Assembly: GCA_964624155.1 (NCBI GenBank)
Contig: CAZUWM010000003.1
Span: forward strand, 1 to 61,396
DNA from: an uncultured Planctomycetales bacterium
Lineage (GTDB): Bacteria; Omnitrophota; Gorgyraeia; Aquiviventales; Aquiviventaceae
Direction: 5' to 3'
Length of the DNA: 61,396 bases
Part shown: positions 4,801 to 61,308 of the stretch, one piece after another
How the letters are laid out: each line of letters starts with the position of its first letter
How positions within the stretch are numbered: position 1 is the stretch's first letter
Translations under genes and position numbers: made by a program
Notes under the pieces: generated by a model
What the model was told of the DNA's origin: nothing
Database searches by the model: none
What the model saw: only the letters and a program-made list of their open reading frames with translations

Positions 4801-5155
4801 CCGTCACCCGTGTCCGAGTCACCTCGACGCTGGCGGAGTCAATGGTGGGTACGGCCCGTTTGGTGACACGCACCGTCACTCGAGGCGTGGGGAACTCCTG
4901 CAGAACGACCGCCGCGATCTCCTCAGCGACCGTCTCGAGCAAGCGATGGGCCTGTCCTTGGACATGGCGGCTCACCACTCCTACCACGGCCGCGTAGTCA
5001 ATCGCCTCCCGGACGTCATCATGGGCCGCGGCACGTGCGGCATCAATCGCCAATTCCAGATCAATCCCAATCCGCTGGGGCGCGGCGCGTTCCGCCTCGG
5101 TGACCCCGATCCGACACGGCACCACCAACCCGTTAAGGCACAGCTTATCGTTCAT
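4781..5155 (-). CDS. folB: Dihydroneopterin aldolase
   Basis: IGVTEAER..PQRIGIDLEL, IDYA, LLETVAE, VRVTK. Confidence 0.9.
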   Translation of the reverse strand: MNDKLCLNGLVVPCRIGVTEAERAAPQRIGIDLELAIDAARAAAHDDVREAIDYAAVVGVVSRHVQGQAHRLLETVAEEIAAVVLQEFPTPRVTVRVTKRAVPTIDSASVEVTRTRVTGDDDGD

Positions 5156-7812: not shown

Positions 7813-9573
7813 TCACTCCTCCATGGTGGAGATGTCCCCGACAGGAAGCCCTTGATCCCACGCGCGCAAGACGCGGCGCATGATCTTGCCGGAGCGCGTC
7901 TTGGGGACTTTCTCGACGAAGTCGATCTCTCGGGGAGCGGCGTGCGCGGCCAGATTGTTCTTCACAAAATCGGCGATCTCTTTCTTGAGTGGTTCCGACG
8001 GCTGATAGCCTTTTCGAAGCGCGACGAACGCCTTGATGATCTGCCCCCGCACCTCATCGGGCTTGCCGATGACACCGGCTTCGGCCACCGCCGGATGCGC
8101 CACCAGCGCGCTTTCGACCTCGAACGGCCCCACGCGCTCACCGGAGGTTTTAATCACGTCGTCGGCTCGTCCCTGATACCAGATGTAGCCGTCTTCGTCC
8201 TTGAACGCGCTGTCGCCGCTCACGTACCAGCCGGGGATGCGGAAGTACTCCTGGTACTTCGCCGGGTTCTTCCAGATTGACTGCATCATCGAGGGCCACC
8301 CCGGCTTCACCACCAAATGTCCCAGTTGGCCGGGGGGCAACTCCCTGCCTTGATCATCGACGACGCTCGCATAGGTGCCAGGAAACGGCTTGCCGGTGCA
8401 GCCGATCTTGAAATCGTAGCTGCGATAATTGCAGATGAGCTGCATGCCGGTTTCGGTCATCCACCAGGTTTCATGCGGGGCCAGGCCGGTGATTTTCTTG
8501 ATCCACTTGAGCGCCTCGGGGTTCAGCGGCTCGCCGACGCTGCAAATGTGCCGCAGACTGGAGAGATCATACTGTTTGGGAATGGCCTCTCCTGCTGACA
8601 TGAGCATTCGATAGGCGGTCGGCGCACTGTACCACATCGTCACCCGGTACTTCTGGATCGTCTGATACCATCGGTCCGCATCAAACCGGCCGCCGAGGAC
8701 GACGCTGGTGATCCCCAGCGTCCACGGCCCGTAAATTCCATAGGAGGTTCCTGTCACCCAACCTGGATCCGCGGTGCACCAGAAGCAGTCGTCGTCGCGC
8801 AGATCAAGCGCCCATTTCGCGGTCTGGTAATGGCCCACCATGGCGTACTGGCGATGGAGCGCCCCTTTCGATTTGCCGGTTGAGCCGGAGGTGTAGTGAA
8901 TAATCAGGCTGTCGTCTTTGGTCAACCACTCCGGCTCGCACTGGTCTGACGCGTTCTTCATCTGCGCGTCATAGCTGATCTCACCGGCGGCGAGCGGCCC
9001 TTCGGCACCGACAAGGATGAGGTGTTCCAGCGCCGGAAGGGATTGACGTGGGATGCGCCCTTTCAGCGAGGGAGTGGTCACGCAGGCGATGGCCTCGCTG
9101 TTTTCCAATCGATCCTGGATAGCCTGCTCCATGAAGGCTTCGAACAACGGAACAGGGATTGCTCCAATACGATTAATGCCAAGGATGGCGAGATAGAGCT
9201 CCGGCGTGCGCGGGAGGAACGTCCCCACTCGGTCACCCTTCTTGACGCCAAGCTGTTTCAGGACGTTGCCGAAGCGGCTTGAAAGGGCTTGCAGATCGGC
9301 GAAAGTGTAGCGCTCATCGCGTTTCTCAAGGTCAGTGTAGAAGAGAGCGACTTTGGTACGTCGGAGGGAGGAGGCGTGACGATCGACGGCTTCATGGACC
9401 ACGTTGACCTTGCCGGTCGTGAACCAATCGAATTCCCGCTCAACGTCCTCCCACCGAAACGTGCGATAGGTCGCGTCGTAATCCTTGAGATTAGCGTCGA
9501 TGATCTTGGGCTTGCGTTCCCACTCGACCTGCGCGGCCATTGAAGTAGGCGATTCAACTGGAGAGTCTGCCAT
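7813..9573 (-). CDS. acsA: Acetate--CoA ligase
   Basis: YTSGSTGKSKG, WCTADPGWVTG, WWMTETG, PKTRSGKIMRR. ATG at 9573 overlaps the nuoH TAA (TAATG). Confidence 0.93.
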   Translation of the reverse strand: MADSPVESPTSMAAQVEWERKPKIIDANLKDYDATYRTFRWEDVEREFDWFTTGKVNVVHEAVDRHASSLRRTKVALFYTDLEKRDERYTFADLQALSSRFGNVLKQLGVKKGDRVGTFLPRTPELYLAILGINRIGAIPVPLFEAFMEQAIQDRLENSEAIACVTTPSLKGRIPRQSLPALEHLILVGAEGPLAAGEISYDAQMKNASDQCEPEWLTKDDSLIIHYTSGSTGKSKGALHRQYAMVGHYQTAKWALDLRDDDCFWCTADPGWVTGTSYGIYGPWTLGITSVVLGGRFDADRWYQTIQKYRVTMWYSAPTAYRMLMSAGEAIPKQYDLSSLRHICSVGEPLNPEALKWIKKITGLAPHETWWMTETGMQLICNYRSYDFKIGCTGKPFPGTYASVVDDQGRELPPGQLGHLVVKPGWPSMMQSIWKNPAKYQEYFRIPGWYVSGDSAFKDEDGYIWYQGRADDVIKTSGERVGPFEVESALVAHPAVAEAGVIGKPDEVRGQIIKAFVALRKGYQPSEPLKKEIADFVKNNLAAHAAPREIDFVEKVPKTRSGKIMRRVLRAWDQGLPVGDISTMEE

Positions 9574-10847
9574 TAGTCGACAAGCAGGTAGGTTCTCGGC
9601 TGCAACGGTGCGGGATTGTTGAGTCGAATCAACCACCAAACACTGAGGCTTAACAGGGCGAAGGCGAAGAGTCCTCCCTGGAATCCTGGCAAGGCCACCC
9701 AGAGAGCGGCCGCCATGATGTTGATCAACGTCAGGGGGAGGAAGAACTTCCACGCCAATCCCATGAGTTGATCGACCCGAAGGCGTGGAAGCGTACCGCG
9801 GAACCACACCATGACGAACACCAACAGATAGGTCTTGGCAAGAAACCAGGCCCATGAGGGGACCGCTTCATTCGCAAGGTATGCGAGCATTCCCGTCCCC
9901 ACGCAGGCCAAGACGCCGGACCCTCGCAGCGCCATGGGGATCGTTCGAGCGGTGGCGACAATGAACGCCGAACCACAGAGCGCCCACCACAGGGGAATCG
10001 CCGGACCCTGCCAGCCACCGAGAAACAGCGTCACGGTGAAGGCGCTGATGGCAAAGGCCTCGAGGAACTCGGCCATGTACCAGAGCGCGAACTTCATCCC
10101 GCTGTATTCGGTATGGAAGCCGGCGACGATTTCCGATTCGCCTTCGGGCATGTCGAAGGGCGTGCGATTCACTTCAGCCACTCCGCTCAGGAAAAAGATG
10201 AGGGCTGCGACCACGCCCCACGGGGTGAAGACAAACCACTGATCCGCCTGCGCCTCAACGATCCTCGCAGTGGACAGGGTTCCGGTGATCATGATCACCG
10301 TCACCACGGACAAGATCGAGGGCACTTCATAGGAGATGATCTGGGCCACGGCCCGCATCGCGCCCAGGAGCGAGAACTTGCTGCGCGAACTCCACCCGCC
10401 CATGAAAATCGCGTAGGAGCTAATCGAGGAGATGGCCAAGAAGTACAGCAGCCCAACGTTGAGATCGACGGCCACCATGTTTCGACCAAACGGCAGGACG
10501 GCAAAGACCAGGAGCGCCGGGATGACCGCCACCACCGGAGCCAACCAGTGCAGGAGTCGGTCGGCTCCATCCGGCACGATGTCTTCTTTGATCAGCATCT
10601 TCAGACCATCAGCCAGGGGTTGCGCCAACCCGTAGAGGCCGACTCGATTTGGGCCGAATCGGTTTTGCATTCGCGCGATGATTTTGCGCTCCAACCATGT
10701 CAGATACATCATGATGAGCGGGGCGATCGTCGCAATCGCGCCGATTCCGATCAGGATCGAGACCAATGGAACCGCCCAGTCGGGCAGAATCCTGGCAGCC
10801 AATTGAGTGGCGAACGCACTGAGGGAAACGAAGAGCTGATCGATCAT
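9573..10847 (-). CDS. nuoH: NADH-quinone oxidoreductase subunit H
   Basis: ERKIIARMQNRFGPNRVG, ADGLKMLIKED, ISYEVP, NRTPFDMPEGESEIVAGF, PRLRVDQLM. Confidence 0.95.
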   Translation of the reverse strand: MIDQLFVSLSAFATQLAARILPDWAVPLVSILIGIGAIATIAPLIMMYLTWLERKIIARMQNRFGPNRVGLYGLAQPLADGLKMLIKEDIVPDGADRLLHWLAPVVAVIPALLVFAVLPFGRNMVAVDLNVGLLYFLAISSISSYAIFMGGWSSRSKFSLLGAMRAVAQIISYEVPSILSVVTVIMITGTLSTARIVEAQADQWFVFTPWGVVAALIFFLSGVAEVNRTPFDMPEGESEIVAGFHTEYSGMKFALWYMAEFLEAFAISAFTVTLFLGGWQGPAIPLWWALCGSAFIVATARTIPMALRGSGVLACVGTGMLAYLANEAVPSWAWFLAKTYLLVFVMVWFRGTLPRLRVDQLMGLAWKFFLPLTLINIMAAALWVALPGFQGGLFAFALLSLSVWWLIRLNNPAPLQPRTYLLVD

Positions 10848-11488
10848 GCGGAGGGAGTCGGGGGTGCAGCCGACCGAGCCGGCACCGTCCCCGCTGGCGA
10901 GGAAGTGCCGCCAGCCGGATGGCTGGCGGCCTTTTTGGCCTTGGCGGCTAACCGCTGATCGACGACGGCCGCTTCCGTTGGCTTGATCTTCTGGAAGTAT
11001 TCCGCGCTTTTCAAGAGCCGCTCCTTATCATAGACCAGCTCCCGAAATCGTTCATCGCTCGAAATCTCATGGGCGTTATCCATCTCAATGGCCTCAAACG
11101 GGCAGACATCCACACAAATCTTGCAGGACATGCAAATGGAGACATCGATGTCGAAGCGCACCGGGTAGGTCCGTCCATGGACCTTGAGGGGCCGGCCCTG
11201 CTCATCTTTCGCAGGCCCGACGATATGGATGCACTGCGGGGGACATTCCTGTTCACAGATCTTGCAGGCTACACAACGCAGATTCTCCGGGGTTCCATCG
11301 TAGATAAGAAACGGAAAGACGCGGTGCCGCTCAGCATGTTGCTGTTTGACTTCTGGGTATTGGATGGTAAACAGCCCGTCGCCTTCTGGAAAACCCACAC
11401 GTTTCAGGATCCAGCGGCCGACCGGATAGGTGCCGATGAACTGCCGTAACGTCACCCGCAGTCCTTTCAGCACACCGATGCCAATCAT
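10844..11488 (-). CDS. nuoI: NADH-quinone oxidoreductase subunit I
   Basis: TIQYPE, CVACKICEQECP and CMSCKICVDVCP (two 4Fe-4S motifs). Confidence 0.9.
   Translation of the reverse strand: MIGIGVLKGLRVTLRQFIGTYPVGRWILKRVGFPEGDGLFTIQYPEVKQQHAERHRVFPFLIYDGTPENLRCVACKICEQECPPQCIHIVGPAKDEQGRPLKVHGRTYPVRFDIDVSICMSCKICVDVCPFEAIEMDNAHEISSDERFRELVYDKERLLKSAEYFQKIKPTEAAVVDQRLAAKAKKAASHPAGGTSSPAGTVPARSAAPPTPSA
10872..10930. repeat. 59-nt double-hairpin element inside the nuoI 3' end
   Basis: 46/59 identical to 47390-47448; stem GCCGCCAGCC/GGCTGGCGGC. Confidence 0.75.
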
Positions 11489-13293: not shown

Positions 13294-13350
13294 GAACTCC
13301 ACAGATTGACACAGATATCTGTGCTCATCTGTGTGTTGCATCTGTGCTCG
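13294..13350. repeat. CACAGAT/ATCTGTG repeat element at the nuoB-nuoC junction
   Basis: Four CACAGAT-type units then four TCTGTG units; supplies the nuoB tail [11 protein letters not shown]. Confidence 0.7.
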
Positions 13351-13936
13351 TCTGTGTTGATGGAGGTTGCCAGACATCAGAGTTATACCGCGGCACCAGT
13401 CCCTGTTCACCAAACGCGGGGACTGGATATTCGCCTCGTTTCTGATCCATGGCTGCCTTGAAGGATTGCGCTTTGATGTGTGCTTGAAGGCGCATCAACC
13501 CGTCCAGCAATGCCTCCGGCGTGGGAGGACAACCCGGAATATAGACATCAACCGGGATATACCGATCAATACCTTTGAGGACGTTATAGCCCTTGTGAAA
13601 CGGACCACCCGAGGTCGCACAGGCGCCCATCGAGATCACGTACTTGGGCTCAGCCATCTGGTTGTACAAGCGCACCACTTGGGGCGCCATCTTCTTCGTG
13701 ACGGTCCCCGCGACAATCATGAGATCAGCCTGTCGAGGCGAGGCACGGAAGATCTCCGAGCCGAATCGCGCGATGTCATACCGCGAGGCGGCGGTGGCGA
13801 TCATCTCAATGGCGCAGCAGGCCAGCCCGAACTGCAGCGGCCAGATCGAGTTGGACCGCCCCCAGTTGACGAGTTGATCCCAGGTCGTCACGTAGACGCC
13901 CTGCTTCTGCAACTCGCTCTTGAGGCCTTCGTCCAT
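13325..13936 (-). CDS. nuoB: NADH-quinone oxidoreductase subunit B
   Basis: [41 protein letters not shown]. Confidence 0.96.
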
Positions 13937-13985
13937 GCTCGTCTCTCAATCACTCAATCACCTAATCACTCAATCACCGTTTGAA

Positions 13986-16964: not shown

Positions 16965-17820
16965 TTATGGCACAGACTGTCGTGATGAGAGAATGTCGTC
17001 AGGCAAGGTTCCCGCGAGCAGAGGGACGGATCCCGGCCAGCTGCTCGCAAGCTCCGGGGCGGGCGGTTCGCGGGTGATCGTCAGATCATCGTAGTAGGCG
17101 AGGGCTTCGGTCTGCGTGCTATCCGTATCGGTCATGAGCCCAATGGCGACGATCATCGGTGGATCGTCCTCGAAACAGCGTCGGTAATCCTCCGTCACAT
17201 TCCGTTTCACCGTCTGCCACGAACCGAGGTGCTCACGTCCGCTTTCAACGACAAGGATCTTCGAGTTTCTGGAGTAGGGACTCTCAAGCACCGTGTCAAC
17301 CGGCAGCGTCGCCGACCAGACGTAGTCGAGGTTGCGTTTCTGCCAGGGAAGCCCCGAGCTCTCGAAATAGACGTAGACCCGTGCGGAGGCATCCGAGCCT
17401 TGTTTGAGACTCAGGTTTTCTCCTTGGACGAACCGATCCACGCGCCACCGCCAGGAAATCCACGGATGGTGGGCGGGATCGACATGGAGCGGGGTTAAGA
17501 GGATCGAGGCTCCGGATTGACTGAGGGCTTGGAGGCTGGACAATCCGTCAAGCTGTTCGATGCCGTAGCGGGTACGGCCGTGAATCGCGACCTCCCGCCA
17601 GCGCTCGGAATCCAGGCGATCAAATGGCTCTTGGAAGATCAGATTCGAGACACGAGGAAACGGGAAGGACGAGGTCGTCGTGGCAGCCGCGTGGGGCTGG
17701 GAAGGACGATGCCGGGGCGCGCACCCTCCGCTGATGAGGAGCAACGTGATTTCACAGATTACAAGACTGATTCCACAGATTCTTACCCAGCGATCACTCA
17801 GTGCAATCCTCTGACAATCC
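16965..17820 (-). CDS. DUF3047-like lipoprotein
   Basis: ISWRWRV, DASARVYVYF, YVWSA, VVESG, MTDTDST; lipobox ISGGC. Start uncertain (ORF open to 17942). Confidence 0.7.
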
Positions 17821-21440: not shown

Positions 21441-22016
21441 CTATTGAGAGGCGGGTTCTGAGGCGACTTGGACGCGATCTAAATCCTGAATGAATCGCTT
21501 CAGAGGGCGGTACCACGGATACTGATCGTCAAATCCCAACGCCTTCGCTTCGGCATAGGCTTGCTCGGCGCTCCATCCTTCTTCGAGCACGCGGTAACTG
21601 GCCATCAGCGCTCCGGTTCGTAACTGACCCTGCCGACAATGCACGAACACGGGTTGTCGTCGAGGATCGGTCACGACGGCCAGGAACGTTTTGACCTCAA
21701 CGTCCGACGGTTCCTCGTAGTTCGAGAGCGGAAGACTGACGAAGTCAAGACCCAGCGCGTGAGCCTGCTTGGTTTCCTGGGTAATGAGTCGAGGGGGCAC
21801 CCGCAGCGACACAATGGTTTTGACTCCCATTGTTTTGAGCGCCCGTAGGCCGGCTGCATCGGGTTGCGCGCCGCGGTAAATACCCGGAGCGACGTATTGG
21901 AAGTTGTTGATGAGCGCCGATTGGGAAGGTTGTTGAATCGCAGTCGGACTCGCGCATCCCGAGAGGCAAAGGAGAGCAACCAACGCGACCCACATGGGCT
22001 TTATCATAACACTCAA
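21441..22016 (-). CDS. Tyrosine/dual-specificity phosphatase family lipoprotein
   Basis: IYRGAQP, VFVHCRQGQLRTG (CX5R), lipobox LSGC. Confidence 0.88.
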   Translation of the reverse strand: MSVMIKPMWVALVALLCLSGCASPTAIQQPSQSALINNFQYVAPGIYRGAQPDAAGLRALKTMGVKTIVSLRVPPRLITQETKQAHALGLDFVSLPLSNYEEPSDVEVKTFLAVVTDPRRQPVFVHCRQGQLRTGALMASYRVLEEGWSAEQAYAEAKALGFDDQYPWYRPLKRFIQDLDRVQVASEPASQ

Positions 22017-22040
22017 TCACTTAATCACTCAATCACTTAA

Positions 22041-23330
22041 TCACGGATTGTCAGGTAGGCGGTTCGTGCGGCACACGTCAGCGAATCGGCGGGCACTCTC
22101 CCGCACCCGACGCGCCTGGGTGGAGTAGTCCACCTCGATCAAGCCGAAGCGCGGCGTGTAGCCGTGCGCCCACTCGAAGTTATCGAGCAGCGACCAGTAG
22201 AGATAGCCGATCACCGGCACACCCTCTTGAACCGCCCGCCCCACCCAGCGCAGGTGATTGAGGATAAACCGCGTGCGCTGGGCGTCGTCCGTCGTGCAGA
22301 TGCCGTTTTCGGTGATCAACACCGGCAGGCGATACGGCACCGTCCATTGCAGGATCTGCCGGATGCCGGGAGGATAGACATCCCACTCCAGGAAATTCCG
22401 CTCAGTCACGTTCGTGTGATGGCGCGTGCTGCATCGGCTGCCCCACCACAAGGAACCGACGAGCGAGGATCGCAGGAAGACGCGCCCATAATAGTTCATG
22501 CCGATGAAGTCCAGCGACCCGCGAGCCTCCGGGATGCGCACGCGAGGGAACCCTGGAAACTTCCACTCCCCCTCGACCAACGCCTTCAGAAATCGCTGAT
22601 TGTAGACGTGCTCGGCGAATCCGGCGGCCACGCGGTCGATCGGCCACCAGGGACGGCACGGCGGAAACGGCTGGGCGTGATTGGCCAGGCTCACCCGAAC
22701 ATCCCACCTGCTGGCCTTGGCGACGTGGTGGATGAGCTGCGAGCTGACGGCGTGCGCGCGAATGAGGTGCTCGACGACGCGGACAAACAGCCGGACGTTG
22801 TTGCGTTCCCCCGGCGGTCCCACCCCATCCAGATAGTGCATGACCGCATAGACCATCGGCTCATTGATCGTCAGCCAATACCGCACCTGATCCCCCAGCG
22901 CCTCCACGACGCGTTGGGTGAAGCGGGCAAACGCCTCAACGACCTTTGGATTCGTCCATCCACCCTGATTCGCAAGCCACAGCGGATTGGTGTAATGATG
23001 GAGGGTGACGAGCGGCTCCAACCCCCGCTCGCGAAGCGCCGCGATCACCTCGCGGTAGTGGGCGATGGCGGTCTCGTCAAACTCCCCTTCCCTGGGTTCG
23101 ATGCGGCTCCACTCGAGCGAGAAGCGGTGGGCGGTATGGTGCAGCGACTTCGCGAGGTCGAAGTCTTCACGAAACCGACGATACTGATCGCACGCAAGAC
23201 CTGAGGGCTCTTTCACCTTCCCTGCCTGCTCCCAGACCCACCAATCGTTATTGGTGTTATGTCCTTCAACCTGATGAGCCGAAGTGGCCGACCCCCACAA
23301 GAAGCCTGACGGAAAGAGGATATCACCCAT
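22041..23330 (-). CDS. Glycoside hydrolase family 1 (beta-glucosidase)
   Basis: GSATSAHQVEG, RFSLEWSRIEP, TINEP, ITENG, DNFEW. Confidence 0.95.
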   Translation of the reverse strand: MGDILFPSGFLWGSATSAHQVEGHNTNNDWWVWEQAGKVKEPSGLACDQYRRFREDFDLAKSLHHTAHRFSLEWSRIEPREGEFDETAIAHYREVIAALRERGLEPLVTLHHYTNPLWLANQGGWTNPKVVEAFARFTQRVVEALGDQVRYWLTINEPMVYAVMHYLDGVGPPGERNNVRLFVRVVEHLIRAHAVSSQLIHHVAKASRWDVRVSLANHAQPFPPCRPWWPIDRVAAGFAEHVYNQRFLKALVEGEWKFPGFPRVRIPEARGSLDFIGMNYYGRVFLRSSLVGSLWWGSRCSTRHHTNVTERNFLEWDVYPPGIRQILQWTVPYRLPVLITENGICTTDDAQRTRFILNHLRWVGRAVQEGVPVIGYLYWSLLDNFEWAHGYTPRFGLIEVDYSTQARRVRESARRFADVCRTNRLPDNP

Positions 23331-30122: not shown

Positions 30123-30323
30123 ATGCGTACCACCCTTGATCTGAATGAGAAGTTGTTGTCCCAAGCCATGGCGGCTGCACACACGAAGACGAAGAAAGCA
30201 ACGGTGGAGCGATCGTTGCGTGAATTGATCCGCGCCGCCCACATCGAACGGCTCATCACCCGACGCGGAGAGGGGACGACGCTGACCCTCCGCACGCTGT
30301 CCCGCATGCGTCGGGATGCGTAA
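30123..30323 (+). CDS. vapB: VapB-family antitoxin
   Basis: MRTTLDLNEKLL..AM..TKTKKATVERSLRELI; promoter TTGCTA-N17-TATTTT at 30075-30103. Confidence 0.85.
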   Translation: MRTTLDLNEKLLSQAMAAAHTKTKKATVERSLRELIRAAHIERLITRRGEGTTLTLRTLSRMRRDA

Positions 30324-30735
30324 GCCGCTCGTCTTGGTCGATTCGTCCATCTGGATTCCCTTCCTGCGGAGTCGAACAGCCGATCCGGCGGCGGAACTCC
30401 TGATGGGGCTGCTTCGTGACAAGCGGGTCGCGACCAACTGGCTGATCCGGCTGGAACTGCTCAGTGGAACGGCCACACACCAGGCCTATGAGTCGCTCGA
30501 TGCAGATCTGGCCGCGCTCCATCAGCTCCCGCTGACAGAGAAGGTGTTTCACGCGGCCAGCCTGCTACGATGGCGGCTCCATCGCAAGGGTGCTTCCATT
30601 CCGGTGGTCGATACCCTGATTGCGGCCTGCGCCATCTTCTACGCTTGCCCACTGCTGGAAGACGATGCTCACTTCCGACTGATCGCCAAACACGCCCCGC
30701 TTCATCTTCATCTTTCGTCAGGGCTCCACATTTGA
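30316..30735 (+). CDS. vapC: PIN-domain toxin
   Basis: LVDSSIWI, ELLSG, VDTLIAACA, LLEDDAHF. Confidence 0.9.
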   Translation: MRKPLVLVDSSIWIPFLRSRTADPAAELLMGLLRDKRVATNWLIRLELLSGTATHQAYESLDADLAALHQLPLTEKVFHAASLLRWRLHRKGASIPVVDTLIAACAIFYACPLLEDDAHFRLIAKHAPLHLHLSSGLHI

Positions 30736-31489: not shown

Positions 31490-31705
31490 ATGCATCCGTC
31501 AGTGGGTCTCACGACGATTTCCTATGCGAAATATCAGCGTCGCTATGGCGGCAAGTTCATCGCCCGCCACGACGGGGAGGTCCTGGCAAGCGGCGCCAGC
31601 TATCGGGCGTTGTTGCAGGCGATCCGAAAACGCCGCCTGAGGCGACAAGACGTCATTGTGGGCTACGTCCCCCCCAAAGACGCCATTTGTATTTATGTCA
31701 GTTGA
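31490..31705 (+). CDS. Small DUF5678-like protein
   Basis: KYQRRYGGKFIARHDGEVLASG; promoter TTGACA(31442)..TGnTAAAGT upstream. Confidence 0.7.
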   Translation: MHPSVGLTTISYAKYQRRYGGKFIARHDGEVLASGASYRALLQAIRKRRLRRQDVIVGYVPPKDAICIYVS

Positions 31706-32105
31706 CTTCCCGATCGGGATCAAGGTCATTTCCCTCGGTCGAGTCGCCAATCCCGTCGTGCCCCTCCTTGTCCGGACTCGCCAGGGCTATGTGCCATTCG
31801 ATTTCCTCGTCGATACGGGCGCTGATTGTTCCATGATGCCAGCGTCTATCGCTGAGACAGAGCTCGGCGTGTCTCTCAAACGCGCTCCACAAGAGACATT
31901 CTTCGGAATCGAGGGCAGCGGCCTGCGTGTCTACCGAGGATGGGTTGCTCTGAAAATCGGCCCGTATCCTTTGCGCGTCCGCTGCGTCTTCTCACCTCAT
32001 GAACACACTCCGTTGATCCTCGGACGAATGGATGTATTCCGTCGTTTCACGATCACCTTCGACAATCACCTCCGTCGCATCCGATTCACCAAGCTGGCTC
32101 ACTAG
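31695..32105 (+). CDS. Retropepsin-like (clan AA) aspartyl protease
   Basis: FLVDTGADCS, ILGRMDVF; overlaps the upstream small ORF. Confidence 0.85.
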   Translation: MSVDFPIGIKVISLGRVANPVVPLLVRTRQGYVPFDFLVDTGADCSMMPASIAETELGVSLKRAPQETFFGIEGSGLRVYRGWVALKIGPYPLRVRCVFSPHEHTPLILGRMDVFRRFTITFDNHLRRIRFTKLAH

Positions 32106-42003: not shown

Positions 42004-44205
42004 TCACCGAACCGCATCAAGGAGTTCCACCATCTTCGCGACATCGGTGGTCGGCAGATTACACAGATAGTTCTGGCAGACGTAGGCGGTGGATTGGCCC
42101 TGAAGCGGTAGTTGATTCGCCACAAACGGGATCAGGGCTTCGATCGCGCTGGCCTTTGACCCGCTCGGATGAAACGCCGCAACCGCTCTGGGGAGGAAGC
42201 GACGGTGAACCGCCTGAATCATGGACTGAGTCTGTGGAGTGGAGGGATCGCCGGCGATGACGATCTCTTGCGAGGGGCCCAGCCAATGATCCAGGGCGAT
42301 GAGAAACTGGGGAAAGGCGTGCGGAGCGCGGGCCACCTCTCCCGAGAAGGCTTCGATGAGCCGCTTCGCCTTCTCCTGCAGGACGTCATCCATCGTCAGC
42401 GTGCCTAAGCGAACCAACACCAGGGCGGCCACCGAGTTGCCTGACGGAACCGCGCCGTCGTACAACTCCTTGGTGCGGGCGATGAGGGTTTCATTCTTGG
42501 CGCCGCCCAGGAACAACCCGCCTGAGGAGTCATCCCAGAAGAGCCGCACCATCTCGTTCGTCAACCGTTTCGCCTCCGAGAGCCAGCGCGCGTCGAACGT
42601 CGCCTCGTAGAGCTCCAGCAAGCCCCAGCTCAAGAAGGCGTAGTCATCGAGGAACGCTGGGATGGCGGCTTCCCCGTCTCGATAGCGATGCAGGAGCCTC
42701 CCCTTCTGTTGAAGACGATCCAGCACGAATGACGCCGCCCGCGTCGCCTCCTCTGCATACTGCGGCTCTCCCAACGCTTTGGCCCCGTAGGCGAGGACGC
42801 CGATCATCAGGCCGTTCCAGTCGGTGAGGATTTTGTCATCGCGGTGCGGCCGCTTCCGACGGTTTCGAGCCTCCAACAGTTTGGCCCGCGCGGCGTCAAG
42901 CCGCGTCTGAACCGACGGGTCGGGGGATGTCGCCGTCGTCAGAATCGTCGTGCCGTTCTCTCCGCCAAACTGATTGGCGGATCCGCCATGCTGTGTGGCG
43001 GAAAAGTTCCCGGCCAGCGTCACGCCAAACGCTTCCATGACGAAGGCGGCGTCTTCCTCGCCAACCACCGTCTTGATCTCCTCCGGCGTCCAGACGTAAA
43101 ACTCCCCTTCCTTCCCCACCTCGCCAGCATCCTCTGCGGAATAGAACGCGCCCTCGGGACCGCGCAGATCCCGCAGCACGTAGGTGAAGATGTCCCTCGC
43201 CGTCTGGGCGTACGAGGCGTTGCCGGTCACTTGATAGGCTTCGAGGTACGTCCGCGCCAGCAGCGCCTGATCGTAGAGCATCTTCTCAAAATGCGGGACC
43301 AGCCACTGCTCATCTGTCGAGTAGCGGTGGAAGCCTCCGCCCAGATGGTCGTGAATGCCGCCCCGCGCCATGGCATCCAGCGTTTCCTCGACCATCTTCA
43401 GCAGCTGGGGATCGCGCTGCCGATACCACACCCTCAACAGGAACGACAGCGCATGGCTGCGGGGAAACTTCGGGGCTGAGCCGAATCCGCCATGGGTGGG
43501 GTCATACTGGTTGCTGAACTGGACCGCCGCGGTTTGCAGTGTTTCAAGGCCCACGGACGACGAGACGGTGCGTTCGGCGCCGGCCTGCAGAGCTTGGGTA
43601 ATGGATTGACTCGAGGTGAGGAGGTCGTGGCGTTTGGTCTGCCAGGACTCGTGGATCGAGCGCAAGACCGTCTTGAACCCCGGTCGGCCGAACGCGTCCT
43701 CCGGAGGAAAATACGTCCCACCCCAAAACGGTTTGCCCTCCGGAGTCAAGAACACGGTCATCGGCCAGCCGCCTTGCCCCGACATCGCTTGGACCGCGCT
43801 CATGTAGAGCGCATCGAGGTCGGGACGCTCCTCCCGATCGACCTTGATCGAGACAAACCAGTCGTTCATCAATTTGGCAATCTCTGGACTCTCGAAGGAT
43901 TCCTGCTCCATGACATGACACCAGTAACAGGTGGAATAGCCGATAGAGAGCAGGATCGGCTTGTCTTCCCGCTTGGCGCGGGCCAACGCCTCCTCCCCCC
44001 ATGGATACCAGTCCACGGGGTTGTGGGCGTGCTGCAAGAGGTAGGGACTCTTTTCTTTAATCAGGCGATTGGATTGGCGAGCGGTCTGTTCCTGCGCCAT
44101 GCGCGTGGGCTCTGTAGTGGTCCGTGGACGGATGCCGGCCACCCACAGGGTAGCCGCCATCCCGGCGACCACGGCCATCAACAACCACCACTTCCTTTTT
44201 ACCAT
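42004..44205 (-). CDS. YyaL/SPATA20-like protein (DUF255 thioredoxin plus alpha/alpha-barrel)
   Basis: [58 protein letters not shown]. Confidence 0.93.
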
Positions 44206-45402: not shown

Positions 45403-46212
45403 GTGAAGTTGTCTGCGCACACAGCCCGACCGTCCGGCTCTATTCTGGCCGCGGTCGGGCTGTTGTCTTTGTGGGTGACGTCCGCCGCAGCCGTCCCCTC
45501 CCTCAACGTCGATCGCCTCAGCCCTGAGGATGTGACGCGGCTGCAGATCATCCTCCAACACCTTGAGCCTCTCATCGCCTCCCACAAGCAAGTAGGCACG
45601 GTCAATCTCCTGACGTGGGACGAACTCTACCAACCGCTCGCCGAGGAGGAGTGCCGGTTTCTCGATGCGTTTCGTGCGTTGAAAGGCGCTGAGCTCGGTG
45701 CGACCAGCCATTATTTTGGAGAGCTCACTGAACCGGATGTGGTGCCGCTCGGTCCCCAAGAAATCCTCAAGGACGGCCGCCGCACCCAAACGCTCTCCGC
45801 CCAGTTCCTGCCTCGGGATGTGGCGGATGCCTACGAGACGATGATGCAGGCGATGGAGCGCGACCTCGGCAGGCGCCTCCTCATCGAGTCCGGCTATCGC
45901 TCGCCTGCCTACCAACTCTATCTGTTCCTTTTTTATCTGCCGAAGCACGACCATTCGATCCGGGAAACCAACCGGTTCGTGGCGCTCCCAGGCCATAGCG
46001 AGCACGGGTACCCGCCTCGGCAGGCGATTGATTTCATCAATCAAGAGGGCATCAACGGCGAGGACCACCCGGAGGAATTTGAGGCGCTGCCGGAGTATGC
46101 GTGGTTGCAAGAGCGCGCGCATGAGTTCGGATTTTACCTGTCGTATCCGCGCGACAATCCCCACCACACGGCGTTTGAGCCATGGCATTGGCATTACGAA
46201 AAAAGTGATTGA
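45403..46212 (+). CDS. M15B D-alanyl-D-alanine carboxypeptidase (VanY-like)
   Basis: SGYRS, PGHSEH..AID, EPWHW; signal peptide. Confidence 0.85.
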   Translation: MKLSAHTARPSGSILAAVGLLSLWVTSAAAVPSLNVDRLSPEDVTRLQIILQHLEPLIASHKQVGTVNLLTWDELYQPLAEEECRFLDAFRALKGAELGATSHYFGELTEPDVVPLGPQEILKDGRRTQTLSAQFLPRDVADAYETMMQAMERDLGRRLLIESGYRSPAYQLYLFLFYLPKHDHSIRETNRFVALPGHSEHGYPPRQAIDFINQEGINGEDHPEEFEALPEYAWLQERAHEFGFYLSYPRDNPHHTAFEPWHWHYEKSD

Positions 46213-46240
46213 GTGATTAGGTGATTGGGTGATTAAGAAA

Positions 46241-47629
46241 ATGAGTAAGCCGACGCTGATCCGGGCGCTGGGGTTGGCGGACGCCACGTCGCTGGTGGTG
46301 GGGTGCATCGTCGGCGTAGGCATTTTCCGCACGGCCAGCTCCATCGCCGCCCATCTGCCCTCCCCTTCCCTTATTCTGCTGGTCTGGGTCGTGGGCGGCA
46401 TCGTGTCGTTATGTGGCGCGCTCTGTTACGCCGAGCTCGCGGCGATGTTTCCCTCCACGGGCGGCGACTACGTGTACCTGGAACGCATCTACGGACGATT
46501 CTGGGCCTTCTTGTTTGGGTGGACCAAGCTCTTCATCGAACGCACGGGGACCATCGCGATCTTGGGGTTTGTCTTCGCCGAATACGTCCGGCGCGTGATC
46601 CCCTACGACGAGATGACCTTGCGATGGACGTCGGCGGCGGCGATTACGGCCTTGACCGCCGTCAACGTGTTCGGGGTGCGGTGGGGCACGTTGGTCCAAA
46701 ATATCTTTACCGTGCTCAAGATCGCCGCCCTCGCTTCGCTCATTCTCGCCGGGTTGATGATCGCAGCGCGCGGTCAGACGGTTTCGTTGGACTGGACGAT
46801 CCCCCCGCTGACAGGATCAACCGTGCAAGCGTTGGGGGTGGCGTTCGTGTTTGTCCTCTGGACATTTGGCGGCTGGACGGAAGCCGCGTATGTGGCGGAG
46901 GAGGTGCGCGAGCCGACCCGCAATCTCCCGCGGGCGATCATCGGAGGATTGCTCCTTGTGACGTTCCTCTACGTGCTCGTCAACTGGAGCTATCTGGTCT
47001 GCGTCCCTATCGAACAATTGCCGCAGACCCCGCTGGTCGCTTCCCGCGTCATGCAAGGGGCCCTCGGCTCCGTCGGGGCGGCGTTGATCGCCGTAATGGT
47101 GGCGTGCTCCGCCTTTGGGGCGCTCAACGGCTATATCCTCACCGGCGCTCGGATTCTCTATGCCATCGGTCAGGATCACGCCTTTTTTCGACGATTGGCC
47201 GCCATTCACCCCACCTTTCATACGCCGGCGAGGGCCTTGTGGGTCAACGCGGCGATTGCGATCCTGCTCGTGTTCACCAAAACGCTCGACCAGATCATGA
47301 CCTACTCCACCGTGGTCATCTCGATCTTCTTTGTCATGACGGTCATCGGGGTCATGGTCTTGCGCCGCCGGCTTCCGCGTCAGCCGCGCGACCGAGCTGG
47401 CACCTTCCTCGCTGGCGAGGGAGTGTCGACGGCCACAGGGCCGTCGACGCCGTATCGCGCCTGGGGTTACCCCTTTACCCCGCTACTCTTCTCGCTGGTG
47501 ATGGTCGGCTTCGTCATCAATGCGTGTCTTACGCAGCCGCGTGAGGTACTCTTCGGCTTCGGACTCCTCGCCCTTGGGCTGCCCCTGTACGCGCTCTCCC
47601 GCCCGACCACCCAATGCCCCTCTTCGTAA
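46241..47629 (+). CDS. APC-family amino acid permease
   Basis: VGCIVGVGIF, ALCYAELA..P..GGDY.Y, GGW..EEV..P.RNLP, TP..AL, YRAWGYP. Confidence 0.92.
   Translation: MSKPTLIRALGLADATSLVVGCIVGVGIFRTASSIAAHLPSPSLILLVWVVGGIVSLCGALCYAELAAMFPSTGGDYVYLERIYGRFWAFLFGWTKLFIERTGTIAILGFVFAEYVRRVIPYDEMTLRWTSAAAITALTAVNVFGVRWGTLVQNIFTVLKIAALASLILAGLMIAARGQTVSLDWTIPPLTGSTVQALGVAFVFVLWTFGGWTEAAYVAEEVREPTRNLPRAIIGGLLLVTFLYVLVNWSYLVCVPIEQLPQTPLVASRVMQGALGSVGAALIAVMVACSAFGALNGYILTGARILYAIGQDHAFFRRLAAIHPTFHTPARALWVNAAIAILLVFTKTLDQIMTYSTVVISIFFVMTVIGVMVLRRRLPRQPRDRAGTFLAGEGVSTATGPSTPYRAWGYPFTPLLFSLVMVGFVINACLTQPREVLFGFGLLALGLPLYALSRPTTQCPSS
47390..47448. repeat. 59-nt double-hairpin element inside the permease gene
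   Basis: Homologue of 10872-10930; stem GTCGACGGCC/GGCCGTCGAC. Confidence 0.75.
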
Positions 47630-60385: not shown

Positions 60386-61249
60386 ATGACTCAACGGGTA
60401 ATTACTGTGGGGCATACGCCGGACATGGACGACGCGTTCATGTTCTACGCCATCGCGGAGGGCAAGGTGGCCGTGGAGGGGTTCTCCATCCAACATGTCA
60501 TTGAAGACATTCAAGCCCTGAACCAACGAGCCCTCCGCGCTGAATTGGATGTCACCGCGGTCTCGGCGGCCGGCTACCCGCTCATGGCCAAAGACTACTG
60601 GATCCTCTCGATCGGTTCCAGCGTGGGGCGCGGCTATGGGCCGCTCGTCGTCGCCACCAAGGGCTGCAATCCTCAAGAGCTTGCGGGGGGGCGCTACGTG
60701 GCCGTGCCGGGCCTGCACACGACGGCGTACCTGGTCTTACGCTTAGCCATTCCGGAGATCGTGCCGGTCGAGATGCCGTTTGAGCAGATCCCGGAGTCGG
60801 TCTTGAGCGGGCGGGTGGAGGCGGGGCTCTTGATTCATGAACGACAACTGACGTATCGCGATCAAGGGCTGCTGCCGATCCTAGACCTCGGGACGTGGTG
60901 GCAGACCCAGACGAAACTGCCCTTGCCGCTCGGTCTGAACGTCATCAAGCAGTCGCTCGGCCAACCGTTGGCCACGCAATTCGCGCAACTCTTGAAGGAC
61001 AGCATTGTCTACGCGATGACCCATCAGGATGAAGCGCTGAGTTGGTCGTTGCGCTACGGACGGGGGATTGACCCCGTCCGCGCCCGACAATTCGTGAGCA
61101 TGTATGTCAATGAAGACACCCTCACCTTCTCCCCCGCGTGCCAGCAGGCGTTGCATCTCCTGTACGAACGCGCGCAGGCCTGTGGCCTCATTCCCTCCGT
61201 GCCCCCGTTGACCTTCATCCAGCCGACCACACAGATTTCACAGATTTAA
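60386..61249 (+). CDS. mqnD: 1,4-dihydroxy-6-naphthoate synthase (futalosine pathway)
   Basis: GHTPDMDDAFMFYAI, GRGYGP, PG.HTTA, LLIHE, DLG.WW..T.LPLPLG, MYVN. Confidence 0.9.
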   Translation: MTQRVITVGHTPDMDDAFMFYAIAEGKVAVEGFSIQHVIEDIQALNQRALRAELDVTAVSAAGYPLMAKDYWILSIGSSVGRGYGPLVVATKGCNPQELAGGRYVAVPGLHTTAYLVLRLAIPEIVPVEMPFEQIPESVLSGRVEAGLLIHERQLTYRDQGLLPILDLGTWWQTQTKLPLPLGLNVIKQSLGQPLATQFAQLLKDSIVYAMTHQDEALSWSLRYGRGIDPVRARQFVSMYVNEDTLTFSPACQQALHLLYERAQACGLIPSVPPLTFIQPTTQISQI

Positions 61250-61308
61250 AAACAGATTGCACAGATTGATCTGTGAAATCTCACTTCAAGAATCTGTGTA
61301 ATCTGTGT
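61230..61308. repeat. CACAGATT/AATCTGTG repeat element between convergent mqnD and def
   Basis: Four ACAGATT units then three ATCTGTG units. Confidence 0.75.

Follow-up and report, generated by a model that had tools for sequence, protein, structure and literature searches.

A 60-nucleotide coding-tolerant palindromic repeat, probably selfish, resident in unrelated genes of Omnitrophota

The DNA analysed here, referred to throughout as the window, comprises positions 1 to 61,396 of contig CAZUWM010000003.1 (assembly GCA_964624155.1), a metagenome-assembled genome (MAG) labelled as an uncultured Planctomycetales bacterium and placed by GTDB in the Omnitrophota. At two distant sites it carries a 60-nt element composed of a conserved module and a hairpin, one copy lying in nuoI, which encodes subunit I of NADH-quinone oxidoreductase, and the other in the gene of an APC-family amino acid permease. 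Both segments are probably copies of a non-autonomous, coding-tolerant selfish repeat, of the kind of the repetitive extragenic palindromes (REPs) and the Rickettsia palindromic elements (RPEs), which has been inserted in frame in unrelated Omnitrophota genes and was perhaps moved by an enzyme acting in trans. An initial annotation of the window had proposed an analogous coding-tolerant mobile palindrome; this proposal is supported by the present results, and the analogy with RPEs holds for the behaviour of the element, i.e., its residence in frame in unrelated genes.

The segments 10872-10930 and 47390-47448 had been described as colinear, equal in length and identical at 46 of 59 positions. 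This was confirmed, and an invariant leading C extended the unit to 60 nt (Table 1). The two copies align without gaps and are identical at 47 of 60 positions, 32 of 36 in the 5′ module and 15 of 24 in the hairpin. The three differences per arm noted in the second stem were indeed all compensated (GCCGCCAGCC/GGCTGGCGGC vs GTCGACGGCC/GGCCGTCGAC), and the reading frames bore out that the element, antisense in nuoI and sense in the permease gene, adds extra peptide to both products: copy 1 codes for NuoI residues 187-206 (AASHPAGGTSSPAGTVPARS) and copy 2 for permease residues 388-407 (DRAGTFLAGEGVSTATGPST). Eight codons separate the end of copy 1 from the nuoI stop, which overlaps the nuoH start, and the true start of the permease is likely the ATG at 46241. 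A degenerate 36-nt pattern matched these two sites of the window only, as compared with 0 matches in 100 dinucleotide-preserving shuffles, and a covariance model of the family scored both copies at ~80 bits (E ~2.5e-16). With its filters off, the same model found no further copies above noise in the 61-kb window. As a separate observation, hairpin 2 of copy 1 is followed by CTTTTT and, taken together with the adjoining CTTTTTGG, is scored as an intrinsic terminator on the strand opposite to the nuo operon; the T-run of this structure is the complement of conserved NuoI Lys-Lys codons, so that the resemblance may be coincidental.

Table 1. Coordinates in the window of the element copies, their host genes and other features
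Feature	Position	Strand	Remarks
Element copy 1	10871..10930	+	60 nt; antisense in nuoI; covariance model 80.2 bits
Element copy 2	47389..47448	+	60 nt; sense in APC permease gene; covariance model 80.0 bits
Conserved module of copy 1	10871..10906	+	36 nt; consensus CGACCGAGCCGGCACC-N-TCC-NN-GCTGGCGAGG-R-AGT, from the 40-copy alignment
Imperfect palindrome in the module of copy 1	10886-10905	+	
Hairpin 2 of copy 1	10907..10930	+	GCCGCCAGCC GGAT GGCTGGCGGC; 10-bp stem, covariation
Hairpin 2 of copy 2	47425..47448	+	GTCGACGGCC ACAG GGCCGTCGAC; 10-bp stem, covariation
nuoI, NADH-quinone oxidoreductase subunit I	10844..11488	-	214 aa; host of copy 1
APC-family amino acid permease gene	46229..47629	+	466 aa as listed; host of copy 2
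Empty site in the DUF255/thioredoxin-domain gene (42004-44205)	42706..42711	-	junction 42708/42709, Q499/Q500; orthologue comparison
Terminator-like structure, hairpin 2 of copy 1 + CTTTTTGG	10907-10940	+	
8-nt tandem-unit array	13948-13977	-	directly upstream of ORF 13325-13936
8-nt tandem-unit array	22015-22044	-	directly upstream of phosphatase ORF 21441-22016
8-nt tandem-unit array	46205-46234	+	directly upstream of the permease gene
Direct duplication, first copy	30892-~31256		~365 nt, 100% identical
Direct duplication, second copy	32192-~32556		1300 nt from the first
PIN-domain gene	30316-30735		upstream of the duplicates
Aspartyl-protease-like ORF	31656-32105		between the duplicates
Repeated dyad, first copy	17748-17781		85% identical over 34 nt
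Repeated dyad, second copy	61234-61267		
AMP-binding enzyme ORF	7813-9855	-	overlaps the 3′ end of nuoH by ~280 nt
nuoH	9573-10847	-	

The anatomy of the element was derived from an alignment in which 40 copies fill 60 columns with zero gaps: the conserved module (columns 1-36) is directly adjoined by a 24-nt hairpin (columns 37-60). Module positions not covered by the search pattern (1-5 and 33-36) have a pairwise identity of 92%, as compared with 66% in the stem of the hairpin, which argues that the conservation of the module is more than an artefact of ascertainment. The element had been presented as a double hairpin, and this description stands for the second one. Helix 2, with a stem of 10 bp and a loop of 4 nt, shows compensatory double changes at 10 of 10 pairs and has 96% of its cells paired in the 40 copies; neither any of 500 shuffles nor any slid register came near the observed covariation, which was already seen with the first 11 copies. 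As many as 23 distinct stem sequences occur among the 40 copies, and stems vary inside a single genome or contig (the window, the retrieved loci L058 and L060, and the MAG MHGA01). Base pairing is all Watson-Crick in 25 stems, 4 have G-T pairs only besides, and 11 have one to three mismatches. The first hairpin did not stand in the same way: columns 16-23 with 28-35 form an imperfect palindrome in which 82% of cells are paired, two positions are mostly mismatched and no pair shows a double change in the 40 copies, so that for the main family the palindrome counts as conserved sequence, not as a demonstrated helix. In two rare variants (L072 3707-3775, 69 nt; L074 8502-8571, 70 nt) the palindrome is swapped for another hairpin, CCCCGC..GCGGGG, and these few cases hint at a structure in the module.

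On its 5′ side the stem is preceded by GAAGT, or by AAGTC in one sub-family, the 3′ end of the element is flush with the foot of the stem, and the ends (CGACC... and ...GCGGC) are not inverted repeats. The consensus has 77% GC and is stop-free in all six frames, for which we calculate a probability of ~25% in a 60-mer of this composition. No match to Rfam was found in the window at gathering thresholds, and in E-value mode there was sub-threshold noise only around copy 1. A possible bias of G-U pairs in favour of the host sense strand was dropped as a candidate, as L001 and the 40-copy counts gave no consistent strand preference. L001 also holds, at 5060-5155 (+), a 96-nt variant of the element in a periplasmic-binding-protein gene, in which a 36-nt insertion splits the module in frame (32 codons).

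Further copies had been anticipated, and they were found in both of the collections scanned. When one genome per GTDB species was searched with 19 specified bases of the 5′ part, 37 matches were obtained, 8 with the whole element, in 5 MAGs (JACQRB, three; MHGA01, i.e., Omnitrophica WOR_2 GWA2_63_20, two; JACQRD, JAHFGX and a Planctomycetales-labelled MAG, one each), and the other 29 had the pattern in common with it and nothing more. In metagenome contigs, a search with 24 specified bases returned 44 matches distributed over 40 loci. After removal of duplicates there were 41 distinct pattern-matching copies, the window's two included, and the covariance model added 7 more divergent ones inside the retrieved loci, which brings the family to about 48 copies in Omnitrophota MAGs and metagenome contigs. 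Exact-pattern copies number 8 in four Ga0080064 contigs (1.8 Mb), 5 in two Ga0209726 contigs (347 kb) and 2 in the window; the resulting density, about one exact-pattern copy per 30-225 kb, is a lower bound, since the covariance model found the 7 divergent copies in addition, and ascertainment by exact pattern favours well-preserved, probably young copies. No copies were found in a scan of IMG/VR viral contigs, nor did blastn with the consensus as query detect any among PLSDB plasmids or INPHARED phages. A peptide query in which the three common translations were joined returned two weak short matches from a word index that is ill-suited to 20-aa queries. One locus, L022 (CAYJWN010000067.1), is labelled 'uncultured Planctomycetales' and shares the site of the element with the metagenome contig L069; the DUF255 proteins of L022 and the window are 69% identical, a level similar to that of Omnitrophota relatives. 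Either the taxonomic label of L022 may be loose, or the element may reach beyond Omnitrophota within the Planctomycetes-Verrucomicrobia-Chlamydiae (PVC) group.

Host genes were assigned by open-frame analysis, codon-position GC and Pfam, and for some loci by codon-position GC only. The majority of copies are situated within genuine genes and preserve the reading frame, and there are more than 20 unrelated hosts. Respiratory and membrane proteins are represented by NuoI (window and L001), NuoL, cytochrome oxidase subunit III (COX3) and the APC permease; DNA-related proteins by ComEC, DprA, DNA topoisomerase I (TopA) and the DNA polymerase III delta′ subunit; translation and metabolism by arginyl-tRNA synthetase (in the DALR domain), triosephosphate isomerase, the argininosuccinate synthase region and a MiaB-like radical SAM enzyme. 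The other hosts are AnmK, DUF255, PilZ, GH57, an SIS-domain protein, protein K of the type II secretion system, a SPOR protein, TPR proteins, NUDIX/NrtR, a methyltransferase and a periplasmic binding protein; to the copies in L043, L044 and L074 no gene was assigned. The orientation relative to the host gene is roughly balanced. The six frames are used ~14, 12, 5, 1, 1 and 0 times (chi-square p ~3e-6, with approximate frame assignments), the main ones being, again approximately, the sense frame DRAGTILAGEEVPRAAERAA (~14), the antisense frame AARSAARGTSSPARMVPARS (~12) and GRALRSARHFLASEDGAGSV (~5). The two prevailing frames give small or hydrophilic residues, and the Cys/Trp/Arg-rich frames are almost unused. 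The copies tend to be placed between Pfam domains or near termini, and they occupy loops, linkers or tails. In the AlphaFold model of the window permease (mean predicted local distance difference test score, pLDDT, 80), the sole internal segment below 50 is 388-408, the insert, which forms a disordered loop between helices 353-381 and 416-435.

Comparison of orthologues, which the initial annotation had recommended, showed both segments to be insertions. The best permease homologues come from Candidatus Omnitrophica MAGs, and exactly 20 residues, those that part PRQPR from PYRAWGYP in the window, are missing from 19 of the 19 aligned orthologues (64-83% identical); a motif scan found the element-derived peptide in 0 of the 120 permease homologues retrieved. 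The closest permease genome, GCA_016206725.1 (JACQRA, locus L042), reads CAGTCTCG^GCCGTATCGC where the window reads CAGCCGCG[60 nt]GCCGTATCGC. The insertion is therefore of exactly 60 nt with no repeated junction bases, so that there is no target-site duplication at this gene, the sole site for which an empty counterpart is available at the DNA level. A 1-nt (C) target duplication, a candidate prompted by the C found at position +1 of 82% of the flanks, was not supported by this empty site.

In nuoI, the two closest orthologues (L003 and L004, whose NuoD proteins are 94% and 91% identical to that of the window) are both without the element, and the indel amounts to exactly 20 codons (L004 AAKAKK|SAPPSSS* vs window AAKAKK|[20 aa]|AAPPTPSA*) within tails that are variable and P/A/S-rich in the clade. 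The same nuoI codon is filled in the window and in L001/L002 (protein P0199, NuoI 68% identical; the L001 NuoD is 82% identical to the window's), and the window and L001 copies differ by a compensated stem change. The initial annotation had held that a distant orthologue containing the segment would speak against an insertion. P0199 is formally such a case, yet closer relatives are empty, which makes it a same-site insertion or the witness of a precise loss and not an ancestral protein segment. An ancestral segment of the NuoI tail, a candidate suggested by P0199, was rejected on the grounds that the two closest relatives lack exactly 20 codons and that 119 of 120 homologues lack the motif. 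As judged from these sequences, the nuoI site would either have received the element twice or have lost it precisely on one or more occasions, and each course would imply a precise, site-selective process. The converse arrangement, an empty site in the window, was found in the DUF255/thioredoxin-domain gene, where the L022/L069 orthologue carries AASPAAGGTPSPAGKVPARS, exactly 20 residues, at the Q499/Q500 junction of the window protein.

The sequences around 38 copies show a preference on the left side of the element. G occupies position -5 in 66% of the flanks, and C occupies position -4 in 79% and position +1 in 82%, against a background of ~31%; C/G, G and G/C prevail at positions -3 to -1, which gives a GC(S)G(S) preference 5′ of the element. 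GCCGG, the consensus of the flanks, relates to the GCCGG(C) of module positions 8-13 both as its complement and as a direct repeat. Moreover, the usual 3′ end of the element, GCGGC, fits the target motif and is the 5′ flank of five further copies; from such a resemblance head-to-tail tandems would follow. Tandems of this type were observed with two units in L064 (341-460, +), three in L065 (5337-5516, -) and two in L056 (1173-1285, +), and in L060 one copy stands head-to-tail with a 16-nt 5′ fragment, so that all the multi-copy arrangements seen are head-to-tail. The two units of L064 carry different hairpins, and the units of L065 belong to a sub-family with GCACCG as its first bases and AAGTCC ahead of the stem. 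In L064 and L065 the frame of the host remains open through the tandem, with 40 and 60 extra residues, respectively.

Among known systems, the closest in behaviour are the RPEs. RPE-1 to RPE-10 are described in PMC10969869 (citing Ogata et al. 2000 Science 290:347; 2002 Genome Res 12:808) as palindromic repeats of ~100-150 bp, AT-rich and found only in Rickettsia. As far as that account goes, the shared traits are a repeated palindrome, in-frame insertion in many unrelated and often housekeeping genes, orthologues without the insert, a peptide tolerated at loops or surfaces and the absence of an associated transposase. Judged by length, composition and host, the two differ: RPEs are two to three times longer, AT-rich and from Rickettsia, whereas the present element has 60 nt and 77% GC and comes from Omnitrophota/PVC MAGs. 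The latter further differs in its combination of a conserved module with a hypervariable, compensated hairpin, in the use of at least 4 reading frames and both orientations, and in its GC(S)G(S) flank preference.

A second precedent is provided by the GTAG- and CGTC-tagged REP stem-loops located inside open reading frames (ORFs), most abundant in Opitutus terrae, a PVC relative of Omnitrophota, and in R. conorii, with RPE-4/RPE-6 (Di Nocera et al. 2013, PMC3733652). These REPs have stems of 5-13 bp, loops of at least 2 nt and an overall length of 20-40 bp, and intragenic dimers encode 20-30 aa; most tagged REPs are extragenic, head-to-head or tail-to-tail dimers prevail and head-to-tail dimers are rare, and mobilisation by REP-associated tyrosine transposases (RAYTs) is hypothesised and unproven for many families (PMC3733652). 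The present element resembles them as a short GC-rich stem-loop in ORFs of known proteins, with varied stems and loops within the family and a PVC-related host, and hairpin 2 (10-bp stem, 4-nt loop, 24 nt) falls within the REP size range. It differs in lacking a GTAG or CGTC tag, the unpaired bases before its stem being AAGT, in being mostly intragenic, in its architecture, a fixed head-to-tail composite of two unlike hairpins with a fixed length of 60 nt, and in its peptides, which are unlike those listed for O. terrae (GTGVPPV, VGPALAAG). The initial annotation had called the palindrome undescribed. This stands as regards Rfam and full-text literature searches, which returned nothing on such repeats in Omnitrophica/Omnitrophota; as regards the kind of element, the intragenic REPs of Opitutus terrae are a precedent (PMC3733652). 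We rate the element as a new family among coding-tolerant palindromic repeats, outside the RPE and the tagged REP super-families.

The ends of IS200/IS605 elements, the palindrome-associated transposable elements (PATEs) and the REP/RAYT 'REPtrons' belong to the single-strand transposition carried out by Y1 enzymes of the HUH class. The element shares with IS200/IS605 the lack of terminal inverted repeats, the hairpins at or near both ends, the lack of target-site duplication and the insertion beside a short preferred left-end sequence, which is here a preference and not a strict site; such systems can in principle excise precisely, which would agree with nuoI sites being empty in close relatives. 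The two copies of the window share the + strand. In contrast to IS200/IS605, no tnpA or RAYT was found near the copies, the target is degenerate, copies in opposite orientation occur within 0.8-4.7 kb, and the right end coincides with the hairpin foot instead of lying some bases beyond. Membership of IS200/IS605 would thus be a working model only. Classical miniature inverted-repeat transposable elements are not matched, as the element has neither terminal inverted repeats nor target-site duplication.

The selfish-repeat reading would account for these properties in two steps. Firstly, the element would spread, or would once have spread, as a REP/RPE-kind repeat, and the survivors would be those insertions that kept the frame and landed in tolerant regions of proteins; such a filter would leave a rigid 60-nt length, a stop-free sequence, a frame bias and positions in loops and linkers. 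Secondly, and with less certainty, it may have been moved in trans as folded single-stranded DNA (ssDNA) by an HUH/Y1-type (RAYT or IS200/IS605-like) enzyme, which would recognise the conserved module together with the hairpin's shape and place the element 3′ of GC(S)G(S). A module bound to its sequence, a hairpin bound to its shape, the absence of duplication and the left-flank preference point in this direction, and by analogy with REP/RAYT or IS200/IS605 recognition of the folded single strand by a trans-acting enzyme is a possibility that we hold tentatively.

Several observations weigh against this interpretation. As the copies were ascertained by an exact pattern in the module, the conservation of the pattern positions is partly built in. 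The target motif is degenerate, with an exact GCSGS in 11 of 38 flanks (~1% expected). L058 and L060 hold copies in opposite orientation 0.8-4.7 kb apart, which argues against a strict replication-strand bias of the IS200/IS605 type. The window and L001 nuoI copies are identical at 52 of 60 positions, as compared with 117 of 180 in the upstream coding DNA, which would not be expected of a purely neutral resident copy. Finally, Pfam detected no transposase or integrase among 40 annotated ORFs of the 61-kb window, and the RAYT/IS200-type transposase whose presence the initial annotation had suggested checking was not found: a motif screen of the window and of ~450 kb of flanks around the copies, which is a weak test, gave no convincing HUH-Y1-like ORF. 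The single HxHxH match of this screen was discarded as a HIT-family-like motif. With no enzyme found, the word 'mobile' rests on presence/absence polymorphism and on the multiplicity of copies.

A stronger form of the selfish-repeat reading, which we consider rather unlikely, takes the element as an active or recently active, structure-guided system of ssDNA insertion and excision adapted to intragenic life. A trans enzyme would recognise the invariant 36-nt module and any perfect hairpin, insert at GC(S)G(S), of which the internal GCCGG and the 3′ end of the element are mirrors, and excise precisely. This would explain the nuoI codon that is filled twice while closer relatives are empty, the copies that are more conserved than their flanks, and the hairpins that diversify yet stay paired. 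If true, the system would be a minimal, 60-nt frame-neutral transposon with a target choice defined by base pairing, in a phylum with almost no cultured members.

Spread could also have proceeded without a transposase, through polymerase stalling induced by the hairpin with microhomology-mediated template switching, or through gene conversion between dispersed copies. The likeness of the GC(S)G(S) flank to the 3′ end (GCGGC) and to the internal GCCGG, the flank conservation that fades gradually from -1 to -5 in a microhomology-like manner, the lack of target duplication, the head-to-tail tandems and the 16-nt partial copy agree with such a process, as does the failure to find a transposase in the window and ~450 kb of flanks; that orthologous copies are more alike than their flanks fits conversion. 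The sharp 5′ boundary with an invariant first base and the length of exactly 60 nt in 40 of 40 aligned copies count against it, the tandem partners are not slippage duplicates since their hairpins differ, and conversion should homogenise the hairpin too, whereas those of a single genome or contig are unlike one another (window, L058, L060). Hence, we judge this route improbable.

Another improbable alternative is that the element is structured, serves the host and is kept by selection at each site, perhaps as an RNA hairpin for mRNA stability or translation or as DNA bound by a nucleoid or topology protein, a role proposed for REPs and bacterial interspersed mosaic elements (BIMEs). The nuoI copies of the window and L001 do diverge at only 8 of 60 positions vs 63 of 180 in the flanking coding DNA, with a compensated stem change, the non-pattern module positions are 92% identical across genera, most stems are intact, and copy 1 forms the terminator-like structure antisense to the nuo operon. 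Such a function is difficult to reconcile with copies in both orientations relative to transcription in about equal numbers, whose host genes and places within them have nothing in common, which the closest orthologues lack and which are as sparse as one exact-pattern copy per 30-225 kb, with no Rfam match and with a frame bias that resembles tolerance filtering. Chance or convergent likeness between low-complexity, Pro/Ala/Gly-rich coding linkers, to which the variable P/A/S-rich NuoI tails of the clade and the ~25% stop-free probability might lend some credit, is practically excluded by a match at the nucleotide level across opposite coding orientations, the 0 shuffle matches, the E-value of ~1e-16, the dozens of further copies in other genes and frames and the covariation of the hairpin.

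Other features of the window were also recorded (Table 1). Three arrays of 8-nt tandem units (GTGATTGA / GTGATTAA / GTGATTAG) stand in the sense orientation directly upstream of start codons in gene clusters. Their pattern has 9 matches vs 0.01 expected, the units give stops in all three frames, and the GGTGAT of the units is complementary to part of the 16S rRNA 3′ end, so that the arrays, judged by these matches, may be repeated Shine-Dalgarno-like or translational-coupling elements. An exact direct duplication holds a small gene starting MTTKIVTSPVGAKAQVTLPKLVREALHL, with the look of an AbrB/SpoVT-like antitoxin, and the first codons of an overlapping downstream gene, beyond which the copies diverge; it may represent duplicated toxin-antitoxin modules or an assembly repeat. 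A dyad, GATTTCACAGATT...GATTNCACAGATT, is repeated at two sites and may be operator-like. The nuo genes follow the order ...C, D, I, H; D and I are not separated by E/F/G genes, an arrangement shared with L001. Given its overlap with nuoH, the AMP-binding enzyme ORF probably begins further downstream than listed. Neither tRNA nor tmRNA genes were found in the window.

Most of what is known of palindromic repeats that code for protein comes from Rickettsia (RPEs) and a few genomes rich in REPs. For the questions of how such repeats spread and why proteins tolerate them, the present family is useful, being very small, of fixed length and with sharp boundaries, filled and empty sites and a measurable target preference, and it separates a module constrained in sequence from a hairpin constrained in shape. 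Essential enzymes are decorated with it (arginyl-tRNA synthetase, topoisomerase I, triosephosphate isomerase, a clamp-loader subunit and complex I subunits) in a widespread uncultivated phylum, which makes it a compact system for the study of how an element moves, of the cost of a 20-residue insertion and of the dating of insertions by means of metagenomic populations. The inserts will appear as lineage-specific 20-aa 'loops' in Omnitrophota alignments and structure predictions, and should be recognised there as repeat-derived.

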